A stretch of DNA of 64,000 bases, taken from contig OZ024743.1 in the NCBI GenBank assembly GCA_964016885.1, positions 263,810,001 to 263,874,000 of the forward strand, written 5' to 3'. Shown here piece by piece: positions 15,691-36,800 of this stretch. Every line of letters starts with the position of its first letter. Position 1 is the first letter of the stretch. The DNA is from Eledone cirrhosa (taxonomy: Eukaryota). The notes under the pieces were generated by a model, which saw only the letters and a program-made list of their open reading frames with translations, did no database searches and had not been told where the DNA came from. The position numbers were made by a program, and so were the translations under genes.

Positions 15691-15750
15691 CATATATATA
15701 TACATATATGTATATATATATGTGTATATATATATAAATATATATATATA

Positions 15751-16330
15751 TTTAGAAACACACAGATACATGCGGACACACACATATATACATGAATGCA
15801 TCCGCACCCAACTGTGAGTTAAGGGTGCCAACTTCACCGATGTTGCTCAATGAATGACTGGGACAGACCAATTCAGTTTGAACCAGACTGAACCAGTATC
15901 AGAGTTAAAAATACATTATGAAGAGAGAAGAAACATTTAGATATAATTAGTAATAAAATGTATCATACATAAACTGTTCCTAAATTCCTCGACTACGTAG
16001 TTTCGTGGCATAAACAAAAACAATATATCAAAGATATAGAGTCCTTGCGAGGTCTGCCGACTTATCAAGAGGATACCTCATTTTACTAGTCTCAAGAACG
16101 CCTCTACACGACGTGAGAAAGAATCCCAAAAGGCGGAGGGGGAGATAGTCACGCGATATAACGGTCGAGAAACTGAGCTAAGCCTCTTATAACCACGAAG
16201 AAAATACCACGGAGGCGGAGGGGGTATTCATATCGAGGCCGCGAAACTACGTAGTCGAGGAATTTAGGAACAGTTTAGGTATGATACATTTTATTACTAA
16301 TTATATCTAAATGTTTCTTCTCTCTTCATA

Positions 16331-16334
<4 letters not shown>
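15751..16334 (-). mobile_element. Circularly permuted copy of the 591-bp HHR element with terminal inversion
   Basis: It starts mid-monomer, crosses the monomer junction near 15915 and runs to 16240. 16241-16334 is the reverse complement of ~15912-16006. HHR at 15986-16073 (-). (TA)n on both sides. Confidence 0.9.
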
Positions 16335-16381
<47 letters not shown>

Positions 16382-25400: not shown

Positions 25401-28110
25401 AACTAATTCGCTAATCCTGTCTCTGTAGGCTTTGCGCGCAGGGAAAGACCCGTTCAGCTTCCAGTAACCAGGCCCTTGTCTATGAAGTCTGTCTATGTCG
25501 ATCTCACAGATCACAAATTTGTGGTCTGTGTAGTCGACTATTTTAAATTGTGGACAACTTATACTAGCCTTATCTAGTTCTCTGCAGAATACCCTATCGA
25601 GATACGATCTGGATGACCTGATGCGGTTTGTCCATGTCCACATTGGCACATTCGGGTGATCCAATCGATACCTGTCAGACAGTTCAAAACGTCTGAGCAG
25701 GTTGGTGAGGCTCTTGCACCCTCCTCCCCTATCCGCTAGCCCCACACAATCCCAGCGTGTATCCAAGATACCGTTCCAGTCGCCCACTAACACTAAAGAG
25801 CGGGACGTTCCATAAGGTCTCTAGACGTCTGAAGAAATCTGGCCGTCCTGCCCCTGTTGGGGCGTAGACGGCTACTAGCCTGAAAGCATTGCCTTCGCTG
25901 CTGGTCACGTCCAGCACCACCGACTTACCTTCTGGGTCTAGGAAGATGGCCCGTATCGCGAGATCCAAGCCTCTCCGAAAAAGGACGGCCACCCCTCCCC
26001 CCGATCCTGGACGGCTGGGAGATGCGTATACACGTAGCCGCCGAAGATCGGTGCGAAGGCTTGTGCTTCGGAGATTCTGGTTTCACTGATGGCCACCACA
26101 TCTATGTTTAGTGACCTGAGGTGGTTGAGCAGATGATCCTGCTTCCAAGATGACCCCAGGCCACGTGCATTTATACTGCCTATTCTGAGTACGGCCATGT
26201 TGGATGAGAAACGGGGCAAGTGAGAAAGGGTCACTTACCTTGTTCGTGTGGTGAAGGGACAGTAGAACCGTCCCTTTCGCTGGTCATGGGGGTTTCCAAG
26301 AGGATGTCAGTGTATATCCTCTTGGTAACCGACCCTCTGAAGTCTCCAACTGCGTTGGGGAATTTTTGTTTTAAAGGTTTGTACTGTTATATTGAGATTT
26401 CGATGATTCTTCTGTTTGTCGGGAGAGTTCTTGGTGTTGGTGGGGTGTAGTAGTTTTTTTCTGTGATGTCTGTGTGCTGCTTTATATATTGTATGAGTTC
26501 TTTTTTTGCCATGTTTATGGCTGTGTACTTTTTGGGGGAGGGGTGATTTTGTTGCTGTTTTTTTCTTGTTGCTGTTTGGTGTGTGTGTCTTGTTGTGTTT
26601 GCGTTGTTGGTGTTTTTGGTGATGCTGGCGGTGGTGTGGTTGTTGTTGTCAGTGGTGATTGTGGTGGTGATGGTGGTGGTGTTGCTGCAAGTTTCCTTGC
26701 TGCCTTTACCCCTCTTTGTATGCCTTCGCTTTTGGAGGGTGAATCTAAGGGGTTTTTCTTTTTTGTTTTTTTGTGGCAGACCGTTTACCACTTCACTCCC
26801 GCCTCAAACTCCATGTCGGATTCTGTCGCGTCTGGGAGAGGTATGTGCTCCACTGCTGTTGGTGGTGGTAGTGGAGCCCTCTTCGGCAATTTTGTTGCTG
26901 GTGTAGTTACTTCAAATGTAGCTATTGGTGTTGCCGCCAGTGATGCTGCTGCTTTAGTTGTCCGTGGCCTTCGAACGGGTGCTACAGACTTTGCGCTCCT
27001 ACTCACCGTGGAAGGGGCTTCTGCGTTTGTTTCCTGCCCTGTTCTTCGTAGCAGCGGACCTGGTATTGGAAGGAGAGGAGCCTTCTTCTTCGCTGTCTTC
27101 TGCGGACAAAAGGCCCTGAGGTGACACTTCGACCCACAGAGATAACATTTTGGCCGTCTTCCTTCTACACTTATAGGGAGTTGGAGTCCTTCCCCGATGT
27201 CTATGATATCTGGGATAGCGTCGATACATTCCTTGTCAGTTTGTATATACATTTGCATGCCTATACCTGACCAGTTCTCTCTCCCTATTTTTCTACTTGT
27301 AGCATGGTCGTCCTGTTCTCGATTCCAGGAAGGACAGACGCGGCCAGCCAAGGTATGGCCACGTCGGGTGGGACCTAGGTCACTTTGACCCTCACAATGT
27401 TCTGCCCGCAGTAGGAGGGCACCAAGACTATCTCCTCACTCTTTAGGGTTTCCAAAGAGTGAGGCTTTGATTCCTGGGGGGTGGCGAAAAGTACGTCTAC
27501 TGTGGCGTACTTTCTGCCTCGGGTGATGTGGGTTTTGCGTGCCCAGACGCACCCCAAGGCCTTTTGAATTTGAGCCTCCGTGGCTCTCTCCACCAATGTG
27601 AGATTTTGCATAGGTACGGTAAGTCACCATCCGTAGCTGCTGGTCCTTGAAAAAATCGGGTGGAGGTTTCAGGGAGACTCTATTGGCGCTTCTTGGCACC
27701 ATGGCCCTTGCGACTGCCATCTCCTCCTCTGTGACTATAACTGTCTCGATAATTCGGGCGACACCTGCAAAAGAAGTGGTCCCTTTTTCAGCAGCACCAC
27801 TATTGCTGCTGTTACTGATCTTACTGGTGGTGCTGAGATCGCTATTACAGGTATCGATGTCATTGTTGATGTTTTGGTTGGTACTGTTGTTGCTGTTGTT
27901 GATGTTGTTTTCGTTGATACTGTTGCTGTTGTTACTGTTATTGTGGCTGTTGTTATTGTTGTTTTTGTTGATACTGTTCCTACTATTATTGTTGTTGTGG
28001 CTGTTGTTATTGTCATTGTTATTGCCCTTCTCGACCTTACCGCTGTTATTTTTGTTATTGTCGTTCTCGACTTTACCGCTGTTATTTTAGTTGTTGCTGT
28101 TGTTATTGAT
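22480..28110 (-). mobile_element. Tx1-type LINE B (diverged relative of A), multiply frameshifted, probably truncated in ORF1
   Basis: ORF pieces carry SINARGL, GDWN, NFRPITLLN, LDQSKAF, YADD and CYLCGSKCHLRAFC. The 3' end is ccttgtggccAATAAA plus (ATT)n at 22480-22500. Confidence 0.9.
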
Positions 28111-28147
28111 GGTGTTGCACGTGGTAAGCAAATTCACAAAAAAAAAT

Positions 28148-29590
<1,443 letters not shown>

Positions 29591-29639
29591 TTTTGCCCAT
29601 ATGGGTCTGTGAGTATTGATTTATTATTTTCTAGATCGT

Positions 29640-30000
29640 ACAGGCAGAACTTATGTTGTTGAATTAAGATTTTTTCACTCTAGCGATCTTATTAGTCAAT
29701 TGCAACTAAAACATGTAAATGTTCATCAAATATTAATTTATACTGCTCAGAAGCGATTCCTAGAGCTGAAATGATTGTAAATGACCCCTTTGAGTCTAAA
29801 CTCTAAGCTATTTACATATATATATATAGTTTTAGGAGGAGGTGTAGGTATAGGTAACTATGTAATCTGTTCTGTAAAGCCGCTGTAATTGAGGGCTTTA
29901 TTATAATAAGGGGAAGCTTTATTAAAAATGTCTAAAGAAGAAGATAAAGTAGAAATCCTACAACTAATATTGGGAATAAGATTTTTAAAAACTATAGGGA
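29640..30000 (-). mobile_element. Hydra-like PLE coding relic (RT thumb region)
   Basis: Minus strand reads PIVFKNLIPNISCRISTLSSSLDIFNKASPYYNKALNYSGF, paralleling ILKNLAYNISLRITNLSSNQDLF at 34.5 kb. Confidence 0.7.
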
Positions 30001-30571
30001 TGTGACGGCCTACTATGATTATTTATCCTTATTTGTGTGTGTGCATATGTATCCTTTTATAAGTGTGTACGTATGCATGTGTGTATATATGTGTGTATGT
30101 ATGTGTGTGTGTATGTATGAATGTTTATGTGTATATATATGTATATATATATGTGTGTGCATGTATATATATATGTATGTGTATATATATATACATATAT
30201 GCGTTGGTGTGTTTATGTATGGATATATATATATATGTATATGTGTGTATATATGTGTCTCTGTGTATATATATGTGTATATATGCATGTATATATGTAT
30301 GTATATATTTATATATGTGTGTATATGTGAGTCTGTGTGCGTGTGTGTGTGTACGTGTGTGTTGTTATACATTCTTATTTATTATTCTCCCCGCCCCCCT
30401 TTTTTTCCCCTCCAGCCTCACTTTCATATCAGTTATATTGTTGTGTTCCATATCCACTGTCAATAAAGACACCAGGACTTTTTCATTCTGATGAATGCAA
30501 GCAATTTTTGTAGCTTTCAAGAAACCACTGGTAAATGAAATAATTATCTTATGTTGTTTATTACATAACTA
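30001..30571 (+). mobile_element. Inverted 5' pLTR of the nested Hydra-like PLE, with HHR copy at 30481-30540
   Basis: Inverted match to 14601-16516 without the nested inserts. HHR reads TTTCATT-CTGATGA...GAAA-CCACTGG-TA-AATGAAA. Confidence 0.8.
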
Positions 30572-30620
30572 TATATATATTTACATATAAAGGTTTACAT
30601 ATATATATATATATATATAT

Positions 30621-31766
30621 ATTATGAAGAGAGAAGAAACATTTAGATATAATTAGTAATAAAATGTATCATACCTAAACTGTTCCTAAATTCCTCGACT
30701 ACGTAGTTTCGTGGCATAAACAAAAACAATATATCAAAGATATAGAGTCCTTGCGAGGTCTGCCGACTTATCAAGAGGATACCTCATTTTACTAGTCTCA
30801 AGAACGCGTCTACACGACGTGAGAAAGAATCCCAAAAGGCGGAGGGGGAGATAGTCACGCGATATAACGGTCGAGAAACAGAGCTAAGCCTCTTATAACC
30901 ACGAAAAAAATACCACGGAGGCGGAGGGGGTATTCATATCGAGGCCGTAGAAGAGGTAGTGAAGAAGGCGAGAAGTATGAGTAATGGAAGCTTTCCAGTT
31001 GTCCCCACACTTCAAAGATTGCTCGACCAGAGGGAGTTATTAATACATTTAGAAACACACAGATACATGCGGACACACACATATATACATGAATGCATCC
31101 GCACCCAACTGTGAGTTAAGGGTGCCAACTTCACCGATGTTGCTCAATGAATGACTGGGACAGACCAATTCAGTTTGAACCAGACTGAACCAGTATCAGA
31201 GTTAAAAATACATTATGAAGAGAGAAGAAACATTTAGATATAATTAGTAATAAAATGTATCATACCTAAACTGTTCCTAAATTCCTCGACTACGTAGTTT
31301 CGTGGCATAAACAAAAACAATATATCAAAGATATAGAGTCCTTGCGAGGTCTGCCGACTTATCAAGAGGATACCTCATTTTACTAGTCTCAAGAACGCGT
31401 CTACACGACGTGAGAAAGAATCCCAAAAGGCGGAGGGGGAGATAGTCACGCGATATAACGGTCGAGAAACAGAGCTAAGCCTCTTATAACCACGAAAAAA
31501 ATACCACGGAGGCGGAGGGGGTATTCATATCGAGGCCGTAGAAGAGGTAGTGAAGAAGGCGAGAAGTATGAGTAATGGAAGCTTTCCAGTTGTCCCCACA
31601 CTTCAAAGATTGCTCGACCAGAGGGAGTTATTAATACATTTAGAAACACACAGATACATGCGGACACACACATATATACATGAATGCATCCGCACCCAAC
31701 TGTGAGTTAAGGGTGCCAACTTCACCGATGTTGCTCAATGAATGACTGGGACAGACCAATTCAGTT

Positions 31767-31769
<3 letters not shown>
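30621..31769 (-). mobile_element. 591-bp tandem repeat (~1.9 copies) with one hammerhead per unit; candidate retrozyme
   Basis: Period 591 (30621/31212, and identical ORF-track entries at 30855/31446). HHRs at 30692-30779 and 31283-31370 on -. (TA)n flanks. Confidence 0.9.
30692..30779 (-). ncRNA. Type I hammerhead ribozyme, U3-A8 core, branched helix II
   Basis: TCCTC-TTGATAA-GT(C)GGCA-[44-nt insert with two hairpins]-TGCCAC-GAAA-CTAC GTAG-TC-GAGGA. Confidence 0.8.
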
Positions 31770-31816
<47 letters not shown>

Positions 31817-31820
<4 letters not shown>

Positions 31821-33469
31821 GTTTGAATATGTATAATAAAGCCAAAACAATGCAGGTATGGACATAGAAAAATAGAAAAAAGAATGCAATTGCAAAAGAT
31901 ATTGTTGACAAATCGTCTTTTACCTTAGATTTATTTAAATGTCCTTAATTTTCGAGATAATATCTCTTCTTCAGAGGGAAATAAAGGTCTCAAACCAGCT
32001 TTCTAAATATCTAGCCAAGCCATGCTGACAGGAAATAGTATAGAGTATCTGTTCTATCTCTAATGTCAAAGAGTTAAAATTAGGTGGATAAAGAGTAGTC
32101 TCCCTTTAACGAACAGGTCCCTACTGGACTTCCAAATCAGGGTAACAGAGGAAGGCAACATCCACACCTGCTTCTATAAAAAAGCCGCCAGCAGGGTACT
32201 GTTCGTACATTTCAGATCGGCCCTCCCACTCGGTGCCAAGTTCGGATACAAAAGGAACGAACTGGCACGTATCCGGAACAAATGCACCGACGCTAGAGAC
32301 CGAGACACACACACCACACATTTCCTGGAAGTACTCAAATTGAACGGATACACGACATCCACCACAAACCGTGCCAGAAAGGACAGAGGACACCACACCC
32401 GAGGCACTAACACTTGCTTCCTGAAGCTCCCGCACTTCAGTGAAGAAACAACAACAGCCACCCGCAGAGCCATCAGACGAGAGGGACTAGATATCCAACT
32501 GGCCCGATCAAGTCCTTCTCTACGCGGACAGCTAACCAAAAGACACTCTACCAGACATGACAACTGCTGAAGACTAGCCAACTGCCCCATAAACGACACA
32601 GACCTATGCCACCAGGCTTACGTCGTATACAGACTAGAGTGTGACAAATGCAACAACTTCTACGTAGGTAGCACCACCAGACCACTCCACATAAGAATAA
32701 AAGAACACCTCAATACTAACGCTTCCTCATTTAAGAAACACCTAGTTAAATGCAAAAACACCGACAAAACCACAACAGTTAGGATAGAAACTAAGGAAAG
32801 AAACCTCGGCAATCTTAGAATTAAGGAAGCACTAATTATAAATAAAACACAACCACCAATCAATAATAGACTAGAACTCAACACCCAATTTATAACCTGA
32901 TAGGGCTTCTAGCCCCATATTTACACCCCCACCCACACACACGCTTACACCTCCACTTATTCTATCTCACACATACACACACAAAACCAGTTCTAACACC
33001 AGATAACACCTATCCCCCACATTTACGAATAGACTTATCTTCTCACACTCACACACACACACTCACATAGTTACACCTTCATGCATTCTCCCACACACTT
33101 AAACAGGCATGTATATAAAAAAGAAAACCCTAATCAAACCCATTTTAAAGGGAGACTACTCTTTATCCACCTAATTTTAACTCTTTGACAGATTAGAGAT
33201 AGAACAGATACTCTATACTATTTCCTGTCAGCATGGCTTGGCTAGATATTTAGAAGGCTGGTTTGAGACCTTTAGTTCCCTCTGAAGAAGAGATATCTCT
33301 AAAATTAAGGACATTTAAATAAATCTAAGGTAAAAGACGATTTGTCAACAATATCTTTTGCAATTGCATTCTTTTTTCTATGTCCATGCCTGCATTGTTT
33401 TGGCTTTATTATACATATTCAAACGTTTATACCTCATTACACAATACTTCACGTGAACTATAACCTCCT

Positions 33470-33472
<3 letters not shown>
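31817..33472 (+). mobile_element. 5'-truncated Nematis-like PLE with inverted 5' pLTR and 3' tail
   Basis: Coding relic 32121-32900 (LLDFQI, FYKK, CFLKLPH, VVYRLECDKCNNFYVGSTTRPLHIRIKEH). Inverted arms at 31817-32109 and 33145-33428. Tail at 33431-33472. (TA)n flanks. Confidence 0.9.
31943..31977 (-). ncRNA. Minimal hammerhead ribozyme of PLE pLTR
   Basis: CCT-CTGAAGA-A-GAGAT att ATCTC-GAAA-AT-TA-AGG has a palindromic AAUU helix III. A damaged mirror copy lies at 33279-33310. Confidence 0.75.
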
Positions 33473-33541
<69 letters not shown>

Positions 33542-33594
33542 GCAACGGGTCACTTTGTGGCTCAATGAAGAGTTAATAAATTAAATAATCAGAG

Positions 33595-33905
33595 CTATAT
33601 ATCATAAAACATGTCTATAGAATCACCAGATAAAATATATACCATTTCCTCTCCCAATTAGCATAATTAACCATATAAAAAATCGATTAGACCACGCTAT
33701 AAGAATAAAGGCTTCTATGAAGAAATCTCCGACAAATAACCGAAAGCAGCTCTTCGCATTGGTTGCGACGGAGTATTTATCGAGTAAGGGCTGCTTTCGG
33801 TTATTTGTCGGAGATTTCTTCATAGAAGCCTTTATTCTTATAGCTTGGCCTAATCGATTTTTTATATGGTTAATTATGCTAATTGGGAGACTAAATGGTA
33901 TATAT
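33595..33905. mobile_element. Fold-back element, ~115-bp arms
   Basis: ~33636-33753 is inverted at ~33787-33905. A short unique left tail and TA-rich borders are present. No clear ribozyme core. Confidence 0.75.
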
Positions 33906-33908
33906 ATA

Positions 33909-36800
33909 TCCCAAGTAATTAACTGGTTTACTAATATTAGAAATAAATCATCTGCTTCATTTCTACAATTCGATATAGATGCTTATTATTCCTCTATACC
34001 AACCATACTCCTGAACAAAGCCTTGATATTTGCCAAAAATAGATCAGACTTAACTATGGATGACATCAAAATTATCACGCACGCTAGACAAACACTAATG
34101 GAGTTTCAGAAGGAATACTGGACCAGAAATACATATAGTAATCTCTTCGACATAACTATGGGCTCTAGTGATTCAGCCCAAATTACCGATCTTGTGGGCC
34201 TCTTCTATTTAACATTAATTCATCTTTTCCCCACCTTAAAGGTGGTTTATATCGTGATGACTGTCTTCTTCTATCCACTAATCTTAGCCGATCAGAAATT
34301 GAAATAAATTAAAAAAACTTATTAGAACTTTCCACAAGGACTTTTATAATCTCACTATTACATTTGAAAACACCAGTAAAATAGTCAATTTCCTAGATAT
34401 AACTTTGGACCTATCTACGGGTATCTACCAACCTTACCATAAACCTAACCAAAACTTGCATTACATACACTCACAATCCAATCACACTAGATCTATCCTT
34501 AAAAACCTAGCATATAACATCTCACTCAGAATCACTAACCTTTCATCAAATCAGGATCTATTCGATAAAAAGCGCTCTTTTATAACGAAGCTTTAGCTAA
34601 AAGCCGCCACAAAAACAAATTAGTCTATATACCTTGCACCAATAATATTTCAAACATAAAACCTAATATTACCAACAAACACCAAATGAAAAACCCACAC
34701 CTAAATGCCACTCATACCACACCTAAAAACACCAACCTAAAACTTAATTTCTCTAACTCTTCTCACATAAAATATAATGACTTTCAAAAAACCATTCATC
34801 CTAATACTCCAACATATGTTAACAACATTACTAACAAAATTCCTAGTAATCAGACTAAAACACCTAAATCAGTTAACTAAACCTATATATAATAAAATCA
34901 CTAATAGTAACTCTCTTAGTAAACCTCCTGATACATCGTATAAATATAAGAAACAATATCGAAACCGTAATACACGGGTTACTTGGTATAATGCTTCATT
35001 TAATCTACAAATTAAAGACCATATCCCTAAAAAATACTTTGCTATCCTAGAGAAAATCTTCCCACCAAACCATAAATACCATCAAATTTTAAATAGATCT
35101 ACTGTCAAATTTTCCTACTCCAATACCAAAAATATACAACAGAATATAAGTGCGTACAACGCATATAAGTGTAAAAGAAAACATAAATTTACCACCAACA
35201 CATCAAACCAACCATAATAATACTAAAATAAACCGTAACAAACCACCATCTTCTTCACCTATAACAATCCTGTAAACTCCACACCAAATTTGACTAACCC
35301 CCCTGATATAATATTCACGAATGGTTGTAACTGTAGAATCAAGAGAAAATGCCCATTAAAGGGAAATGGTCTTATTAAAAACATAGTCTATAAATGTAAT
35401 GACTCCACTTATTCATATATAGGAGCTACGTCTAACCAATTTAAAGTAAGATTTAATACCCACAAACATAGTTTTTAAAATGCCGCATTAGCTAATACAA
35501 CATCCTTGGCTGAAACAATTAATAATTATAGAAAGAAGAATATCAATTACAACCTGACCTGGAGCGTGCTAAAAAAGGGCTACCCCTTATCAAAATAACA
35601 GATACGAGTGTAGGTTATGCTCCCAAGAACTTTTTGAAATCATGAAATCTAAGGATATCCTATTAAATAAGCGACAGGAATTAATTATATCTTGCAATCA
35701 TAGAATTAGAAGAATCTTCAAATATTATAAACCTAATTAATATACACCTTATTCTTATATTTTACAAATTATTATAATTGTTTTTTTTAAATTTAGTTAA
35801 CCTATAATTAATATTTTACTACAGAGAACTTCATAATTTTATTTTCCTCTTACAGATCTCTTTTCCTAAAATTATTTTTAACCACACCACTTCTTTTAAT
35901 CGCATCCCCTATTTATCACATTTAATACCTATGATTATTAAATATAATTAATATCTTTAATATCATCAATGTCTGTATAGATACAATATTCTTTATAAAC
36001 ATTTTTATCTACTTCAGTTTTTCCATATATTTATGTTTTATTGCTTTAATTCCTTACTGCTTTATTTATCACATTCATATGAATTAATATAATTTTATTC
36101 CTGTAGGTATACCTATAAATTAATTTAATTTCCTGTTATGTATTTAGATTCCTTGTAGTTTAAATAAGATTAGTATTTCTCACTAATACCCTTATCCCAA
36201 AATTTTATTTTCCTTCGTTTTTAACAACATGCTTTAATAACATCAAGTTTTTATTTATCACATTCATATGAATTAATATAATTTTATCCCTGTATAGATC
36301 TAGATTCCTTGTATTTAAATAAGATTAGTATTTCTCACTAATACCCTTACCCTAAAATTTTCTTTTCTTTCGTTTTTAACAAGATTCTTTCATAACATCA
36401 AATTTTCGTGTACAGTTCACTGGCTTGACTTGACCTCATTTTAATCCCCATAGTATTCTTTTCATTCAAAGCATAAGTCTGCACTCCTCTACCCCTAGAT
36501 TTAATTTCTACTACTGTTATTCTATCAACTTGACCTCTAACTCCTTTTCTATTGGTCAATTCACAACCTGTTCCCAAACAGACCTTTTATATTAATTCTT
36601 TGTTTTTTTCAATAAACAAATCTCATCATTTCAGACGACCTCATGTATGTATATTTCCTCTGATAATTTGTAATATTTTTACATAGATCTATGATATACA
36701 TACCAACACACATATACATCCCAGAAACAATAGTAAAATGATTAATTTTTTAATATAAGGAACTTGTTCTTTGTTTTTATTTCATTGTTTTTATTAAATA
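33909..36800 (+). mobile_element. 5'-truncated Hydra-like PLE (RT + GIY-YIG), degenerate, long AT-rich 3'UTR
   Basis: VINWF, FLQFDIDAYYSSI, FDITMGSSDSAQITDLVG, GLYRDD, NFLDITLDL, PYHKPN, TWYN, CNCRIKRKCPL (CxCx5C), IVYKC, YIGATSNQFKVRFNTH. It ends in (TA)n. Confidence 0.85.

Follow-up and report, generated by a model that had tools for sequence, protein, structure and literature searches.

The window, here the whole 64-kb stretch of the Eledone cirrhosa genome that was analysed, contains on its minus strand an insertion (30617..31769) built of a non-coding unit repeated head to tail with a period of 591 bp. The insertion measures 481 + 591 + 77 nt, about 1.94 units, and is flanked on both sides by (TA)n tracts (30600..30620 on the left and 31769..31817 on the right), in which a target-site duplication cannot be read. 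Comparison of positions 30621–31178 with the copy lying 591 nt further on gave 0 mismatches, which bears out the description, in an earlier note on this DNA, of ~1.9 identical copies inside (TA)n. Units were numbered along the minus strand (window 31288–30698), position 1 being the C of a GUC triplet and the predicted cut lying between positions 1 and 2. With this numbering the insertion consists of a single arm, truncated at its 5' end at unit position 111 (31769), whose 3' end lies at start site 1 (see below) and runs into (TA)n. The predicted 591-nt monomer, or circle, would occupy 30697..31287 (minus strand), between the two GUC cut sites; its period is observed and the cut is deduced from the hammerhead consensus. 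A second insertion of the same family, at 15746..16336, is of a two-armed type, with the arms joined 5'-to-5', the left one ending at site 2 and the right one at site 1, both into (TA)n.

The unit has a GC content of 41.6%, i.e. under 50%, and its length ranges from 588 to 598 nt across copies. The longest stop-free frame covers 86 aa, the two longest frames gave no Pfam match, and reading round the predicted circle meets stops in every frame. Unlike an autonomous Penelope-like element, the unit has no ORF with a reverse transcriptase (RT) and a GIY-YIG endonuclease. A TATA-like word at unit 349–369 (window 30920–30940, minus strand), intact in the older subfamilies and altered in the youngest, is followed by a GC-box (CCCCTCCGCC), and a second GC-box lies downstream (unit 441–450, window 30839–30848, minus strand). 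This region is conserved in an older related family, and the TATA-like word and GC-boxes are a possible internal Pol II promoter.

The right (TA)n tract is common to the insertion and to the short end of an adjoining, truncated coding Penelope-like element (31818..33473), which is two-armed, with the short end on the left, an end carrying a 40-nt tail on the right and a GIY-YIG domain at 32571–32897. On the other side, at 30480–30570 (plus strand), is a type I hammerhead-like motif with a canonical core (CTGATGA ... GAAA CCACTGG TA); some 35 nt beyond it a 3' end lies in (TA)n, and similar motifs occur at loci L059 and L060. This motif is probably the end of another Penelope-like family, in which case the TA tract would be a nested landing site for three elements. 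Further right, at 33621–34460 (plus strand), a fragment of a different RT-like frame carries the motifs FDIDAYYSSIP and TMGSSDS, which we take to be Penelope-like; the 228-aa frame at this position gave no Pfam match.

A young and dispersed family

A 23-nt piece of the ribozyme described below has 7,458 exact matches in the 3.0-Gb genome and its reversed control has 0. At least 62 perfect full units, on many contigs, were counted among the 40 of 615 candidates scored in a DNA search, and so many perfect copies indicate that the family is very young. Its members are dispersed over thousands of sites, in arrays of up to about six units at the loci seen. Subfamilies range from 100% down to about 86% identity, and an older related family is ~72–75% identical to the unit. 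Dispersed, very young and non-coding, the family fits the young non-autonomous element that had been proposed.

The ribozyme core and stems are identical to those of the older family at 41/41 positions, vs 401/537 elsewhere in the unit (p 1.4e-5). Helices I–III are thus conserved by invariance, while their covariation, which the earlier note had proposed as a check, amounts to one compensatory change, in helix I at one locus; over the whole unit there are 6 compensatory pairs, no excess over shuffles (6.6 ± 2.8). The circular fold predicted for the ribozyme strand has an energy of −172.6 kcal/mol (z −6.2) vs −128.4 for the antisense, and the alignment fold gives −97.8 vs −59.8 for the antisense and −55 ± 5.7 for shuffles.

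These data bear on a DNA-level origin of the repeat, as a minisatellite, as the pseudo-LTR of a coding Penelope-like element or as an assembly duplication. A local assembly duplication is contradicted by the perfect units on many contigs and by the 7,458 exact ribozyme pieces vs 0 in the control; a minisatellite is at odds with short, dispersed arrays that have fixed 3' ends and random 5' ends, and the strand asymmetry of the fold and of the mutations described below calls for an RNA stage. The pseudo-LTR finds its support in one of 149 sampled loci (L123), where an arm is joined directly to a Penelope-like ORF. Wherever the repeat at this locus departs from the window unit, other loci are variable too; the coding part carries two frame breaks and, over 651 nt, 6 private differences. 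An ordinary repeat beside an aged coding part indicates that the repeat was inserted later, and L123 was therefore ruled out as a template-switch chimera that would name the partner element. Taken together, a DNA-level origin in any of these three forms is very improbable.

A type I hammerhead in every unit

Each tandem unit carries a complete type I hammerhead, read on the minus strand as TCCTC-TTGATAA-GT(C)GGCA-[44 nt]-TGCCAC-GAAA-CTACGTAG-TC-GAGGA. The two copies (31283..31370 and 30692..30779) have cores starting at 31365 and 30774, with cleavage predicted 3' of the C at 31288 and 30697, respectively. Their position and strand agree with those first reported, and a third copy is found at 16068; a relaxed type I hammerhead scan of the 64-kb window returned just two further matches, both weak. 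The G10.1–C11.1 pair, the GAAA, the A15.1–U16.1 pair, the NUH site and helices I–III are all present as in canonical hammerheads. The core departs from the canonical CUGANGA and reads UUGAUAA, the known U3–A8 variant. The earlier note was right to regard this pair as compensatory and overstated its novelty, since U3–A8 is a described natural covariation in hammerheads (PMC3088659, PMC4209133). The expectation that CUGANGA-type searches would miss the motif holds for Rfam, which gave no hammerhead match in 28000–34000 or 30640–31400 at thresholds of E<=5 and E<=10 and so overlooks a ribozyme family with over 7,000 copies.

Helix III had been described as loopless. In the monomer it forms 3 pairs closing an ACGU loop, an unstable arrangement (+1.5 kcal/mol), and the 10-nt palindrome as a duplex has a predicted energy of −12.9 kcal/mol. 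This difference favours cleavage in a dimer, as had been suggested from the palindrome, and the active hammerhead fold is predicted at no more than 1.1 kcal/mol from the local minimum. The 44-nt insert of helix II (31308..31351, second copy 30717–30760, minus strand) is self-paired as claimed, although not as two hairpins: the CCT-cgca-AGG hairpin is absent from older subfamilies, and what is retained is one long hairpin, whose pairing is kept in 17 chosen variants by one-sided exchanges among A-U, G-U and C-G pairs. In this insert an A-run facing a U-run shifts stepwise between copies of different age (L070, L103, L051, L001, L121), the older ones having five A and the younger ones coming down to a single A with three G, a series consistent with successive fixation of A>G changes.

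A bulged helix II and a palindromic helix III, as found here, are known from Drosophila Penelope. The Schistosoma Penelope-like elements have U3–A8 hammerheads with the same core pair, reported to be active in vitro (PMC3088659, PMC4209133), although these motifs are mostly single, heterogeneous and minimal, whereas in the present family the hammerhead is homogeneous, present in every unit and part of a recently active tandem element. With the U3–A8 core and a dimer-type helix III already in print, the ribozyme alone is not new.

Two fixed 3' ends and a Penelope-type insertion pattern

On the ribozyme strand the 5' ends of the insertions are scattered. Two fixed sites account for the 3' ends, one at unit position ~81 (80 nt beyond the cut) and the other at ~246 (245 nt beyond it), and (TA)n follows at both. 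These are the sole two AATGTAT words of the unit. Start site 1 (unit 75–81; window 30617..30623, minus strand) reads AATGTAT in internal copies, such as 31208–31214, and is fused here with the TA tract; start site 2 (unit 240–246; 31043..31049, second copy 31634–31640, minus strand) is not an end in the window insertion. Genome-wide, junctions with TA number 2,514 at site 1 and 1,856 at site 2 (1,181 + 675, with two patterns), and controls gave 0. The older, ~72%-identical family has the same two ends.

The two sites are used as a pair. For site 1 the sample was the first 90 ends on contig C1 less the duplicate L042 (n = 89), and an inverted second arm joined 5'-to-5' was seen in 54. Where the end of that arm was in view (52 cases), it lay at 241–254 in 49 and at 81 in none, the three exceptions being at 228, at 428 and, as a 19-nt match, at 171. 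Conversely, 38 of 60 site-2-anchored loci have a second arm, and its end, in view in 36, lay at 75–82 in 33 (two of which, L182/L183, are one duplicated event), elsewhere in three and at site 2 in none. The arms meet head to head with 0–5 nt of overlap in most cases; in the other insertions one arm is kept. In L042/L043 and in L182/L183 whole insertions are locally duplicated with identical breakpoints, and these are duplications at the DNA or assembly level that followed insertion. In L038 (858–1251), an older two-armed insertion, the second arm ends at another TGTAT word (unit position 428), which would be an occasional third start site.

Two 3' ends, an inverted 5'-truncated arm and a microsatellite target are the insertion signature of Penelope-like elements, for which a tail at one end and inverted truncated copies have been described (PMC8557442). 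The anole Penelope-like protein cuts and extends both strands in vitro, starts reverse transcription at two RNA sites bounding the tail and is predicted to act as a dimer (PMC11167929). The adjoining coding family offers a close comparison. Its copies are ~98% identical and target (TA)n with two ends 40 nt apart, an RT is present in another copy, and its end motif has 2,260 exact copies; in tandem copies the tail reads directly into the next ORF. Of 20 inverted pairs (19 genome loci and the window copy), 15 join a short end to one with the 40-nt tail, at TA; 2 continue on one side into the following unit, 3 are ambiguous and none (0/20) has two alike ends at TA. By its likeness to this coding element and to the anole protein in the pairing of two ends, the 591-nt repeat bears a Penelope signature with a tail of 165 nt. 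The pairings (49/52 and 33/36) therefore lend support to the proposed use of Penelope-like enzymes.

The adjoining element, the one coding family compared, has no sequence likeness to the 591-nt unit, and no hammerhead was seen by eye in the 3' end of its family; its protein gave 14 matches, with a sole named relative from Octopus bimaculoides, an indirect sign of the cephalopod host suggested in the earlier note, probably an octopod. The element serves as a comparison case. A partner search with short-helix-II ribozyme patterns gave 11 matches with one pattern and 0 with the other, the 11 being mostly deletion variants of the 591-nt family or apparent chance matches, and found no partner. (TA)-rich flanks (L063:748–826, L001, L015, L028, L037, L062, L077) also hold at least five more families of type I hammerhead, which have CUGANGA cores and in some cases a long helix II arm; other retrozymes, or the partner element itself, may be among them.

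The template and its strand-biased changes

The cut site is passed by 85 of 89 arms, twice in 35 and three or more times in 6, and all 282 scored junctions across it are free of indels; these junctions were found by a two-flank pattern, which badly altered ones would escape. No pile-up of 5' ends is seen at the cut site, with 2 of 142 and 1 of 98 ends exactly there, nor is there one for TA-adjacent ends in a 30-nt window, where, among the first 100 of 420 matches, 3 of 43 distinct loci end at the cut site.

Private variants at positions with at least twofold coverage number 148, of which 29 occur in all copies of their insertion, 116 in one copy and 3 in part of the copies. Among the 29, 18 span both arms, and recurrent variants are discordant within an insertion in 25 of 264 cases. 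A new change present in every unit implies that a monomer was multiplied after the change arose, and a circle is the simplest account, with the 25 discordant variants counting against it. Described retrozyme monomers can be ligated in vitro by RtcB (PMC7229834).

Two linear templates may be considered in place of a circle. With the same Penelope-type insertion, the template could be an uncleaved multimer, the ribozyme being slow, regulatory or a mere protein-binding fold. Such a template also predicts seamless junctions without a strong pile-up at the cut site, and it accords with the unstable helix III of the monomer. It has precedents in the anole element, where insertion in vitro was not lowered by ribozyme mutations and drew mainly on uncleaved RNA (PMC11167929), and in frog retrozymes, of which 8 of 9 dimers did not cleave (bioRxiv 10.64898/2026.07.22.740005). 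Linear multimers, however, cannot place a new private change in every unit, and 29 such changes stand against 3 partial ones; the complete conservation of the ribozyme, and the scarcity of A>G among one-copy changes where unit-by-unit editing would have raised it (2/60, see below), also speak against them. We thus consider an uncleaved template unlikely. A cleaved linear monomer, from whose 5' end the RT jumps to the template's own 3' end to build arrays, would explain the all-unit variants without ligation, and the 5' ends mapped exactly at the cut site (3/240 vs ~0.4 expected) are a weak hint that cleaved templates are used occasionally. Yet such a jump is hard to reconcile with 282/282 junctions without added or lost bases, with the ~99% of arms that do not stop at the cut site, or with the few TA-adjacent ends located there, and this second linear template appears more improbable still. 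The circular template is therefore preferred in what follows.

Among the all-copy private variants an excess of A>G on the ribozyme strand was noticed. The first test counted 10 A>G and 3 T>C among all-copy variants, against 7 and 17 among one-copy variants (Fisher p 0.0075). Under a strict test the first set gave 7 vs 2 and the second 2 vs 1, the latter not significant alone, and in both sets pooled A>G accounted for 9/31 of the all-copy and 11/155 of the one-copy changes (p 0.0015). The effect is clearest in 55 insertions of the youngest subfamily, with A>G at 19/36 all-copy sites vs 2/60 one-copy changes (p 2e-8), in a test that admits recurrent sites and was defined after the first look; leaving out the two richest insertions, the values are 13/28 vs 1/48. 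One insertion (L093) has 7 A>G changes in all the units that cover them, 6 of them on both arms. In older subfamilies the signal is weak (6 vs 5 of 25; 14 vs 9 of 51). Across several subfamilies the changes recur at the same sites, and the neighbourhood of these sites is more paired (p 0.02).

This bias is best read as probable A-to-I editing of the template, and heavy RNA editing is reported in squid (PMC4384741). The same element could instead have acquired A>G through polymerase error or selection for G-U pairs, not through ADAR. Such an origin would agree with the finding that A>G sites show no ADAR neighbour preference, with the weakness of the signal in the older subfamilies and the second sample, and with the good tolerance of G-U pairs in the fold. 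C>T, the other change that makes G-U wobbles, is nevertheless not enriched (3/36 all-copy vs 12/60 one-copy), which counts against mere tolerance of such pairs, and RT errors should appear among one-copy changes too. The clustering of changes in single insertions, their recurrence across subfamilies and their paired neighbourhoods do not favour it either. A source other than ADAR is, all in all, doubtful, though it carries more weight than either linear template.

In the search for the circle itself, a 621-nt contig (591 + 30, a closed cycle) from run X1, a run not recorded as RNA, was set aside, as tandem DNA gives the same shape and run X1 also holds a piece of the adjoining Penelope-like element. 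An A>G-rich contig of depth 2 from run X2 was likewise set aside.

Proposed cycle and relation to known retrozymes

In the cycle that we propose, transcription of the array would yield the ribozyme strand; Pol II is the probable enzyme, as five runs of 4–7 T argue against Pol III. Neighbouring ribozymes would then associate by way of the 10-nt palindrome and cleave 3' of GUC, and the monomer would be closed by a host ligase, as in described retrozymes. A Penelope-type endonuclease/RT dimer may cut both strands of (TA)n and prime at site 1 from one DNA end and at site 2 from the other (80 and 245 nt beyond the ribozyme cut, respectively), each RT rolling round the same circle for a variable length. 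The products seen in the genome are two 5'-truncated copies joined head to head, or a single arm. A circle edited once and copied many times would leave A>G in every unit. In this scenario the 591-nt element is a young non-autonomous retrozyme whose self-cut monomers are likely circular, A-to-I edited and copied into (TA)n by a Penelope-like enzyme, a reading that we hold to be probable. A further-reaching version, in which the insertions are a fossil record of double rolling-circle reverse transcription, with an RT dimer priming both ends on one circle, and in which ADAR edits enter the germline and editing drives the evolution of the element, seems to us evenly balanced.

By the features analysed in its sequence, the element is a metazoan non-LTR retrozyme, a known class. 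The retrozymes of coral, mussel and axolotl (PMC7229834, bioRxiv 10.64898/2026.07.22.740005) are likewise non-coding and tandem, each unit carrying one type I hammerhead, with a GC content under 50%, a highly self-paired predicted circle and co-occurrence with Penelope-like elements, and their published length range of 51–972 bp includes 591 nt. Within the accessible parts of these sources, the U3–A8 core, the 57-nt helix II arm, the (TA)n targeting, the two fixed 3' ends paired in inverted arms and the all-unit A>G variants of the 591-nt unit are not reported. Circular RNA expression has been shown for metazoan retrozymes, whereas the 591-nt circle is predicted from the genome. Penelope-like elements share the inverted 5'-truncated second arm, the one-end tail and the AT-rich or (TA)n targets (PMC11167929, PMC8557442), and differ from the unit, which has no ORF and a tail of 165 nt vs 30–40. 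In the anole Poseidon element two RT start sites also lie past the ribozyme, the first at a calculated 85–92 nt past the cut (80 nt here); the anole sites are not homologous to the target, whereas those of the 591-nt unit end in TAT and can pair with it (PMC11167929). Non-autonomous elements of Chlamys such as MRC1 (PMC8557442) are, in a similar way, non-coding Penelope-dependent units with multicopy head-to-tail insertions. They have no canonical hammerhead, and their 3' ends are like those of their autonomous partners, whereas no such partner was found for the 591-nt unit.

In the accessible text of a 2020 review (PMC7761336), no motif in animal retrozymes points to the retrotransposon used, and copying of a circle is given as the likeliest route only. 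In the accessible part of a 2026 preprint, co-occurrence and sequence likeness, rather than a mechanism, tie retrozymes to Penelope-like elements (bioRxiv 10.64898/2026.07.22.740005). A search of the open literature, with Repbase, Dfam, subscription papers and supplements outside its scope, found no cephalopod retrozyme and no comparable analysis of insertions or editing; supplements of the retrozyme papers could hold such a family. What is new here, as measured against these sources, is the form of the ribozyme, the target and an insertion record that bears on the question stated as open in the review (PMC7761336). Thousands of young insertions bear the Penelope two-start-site scar and thereby address the link between retrozymes and their enzyme, and the family records both a monomer bottleneck and a strand-specific A>G change. 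The 591-nt unit is also a defined substrate with two mapped start sites, useful for testing circle-templated insertion, and the family is a candidate case of RNA edits reaching the germline.
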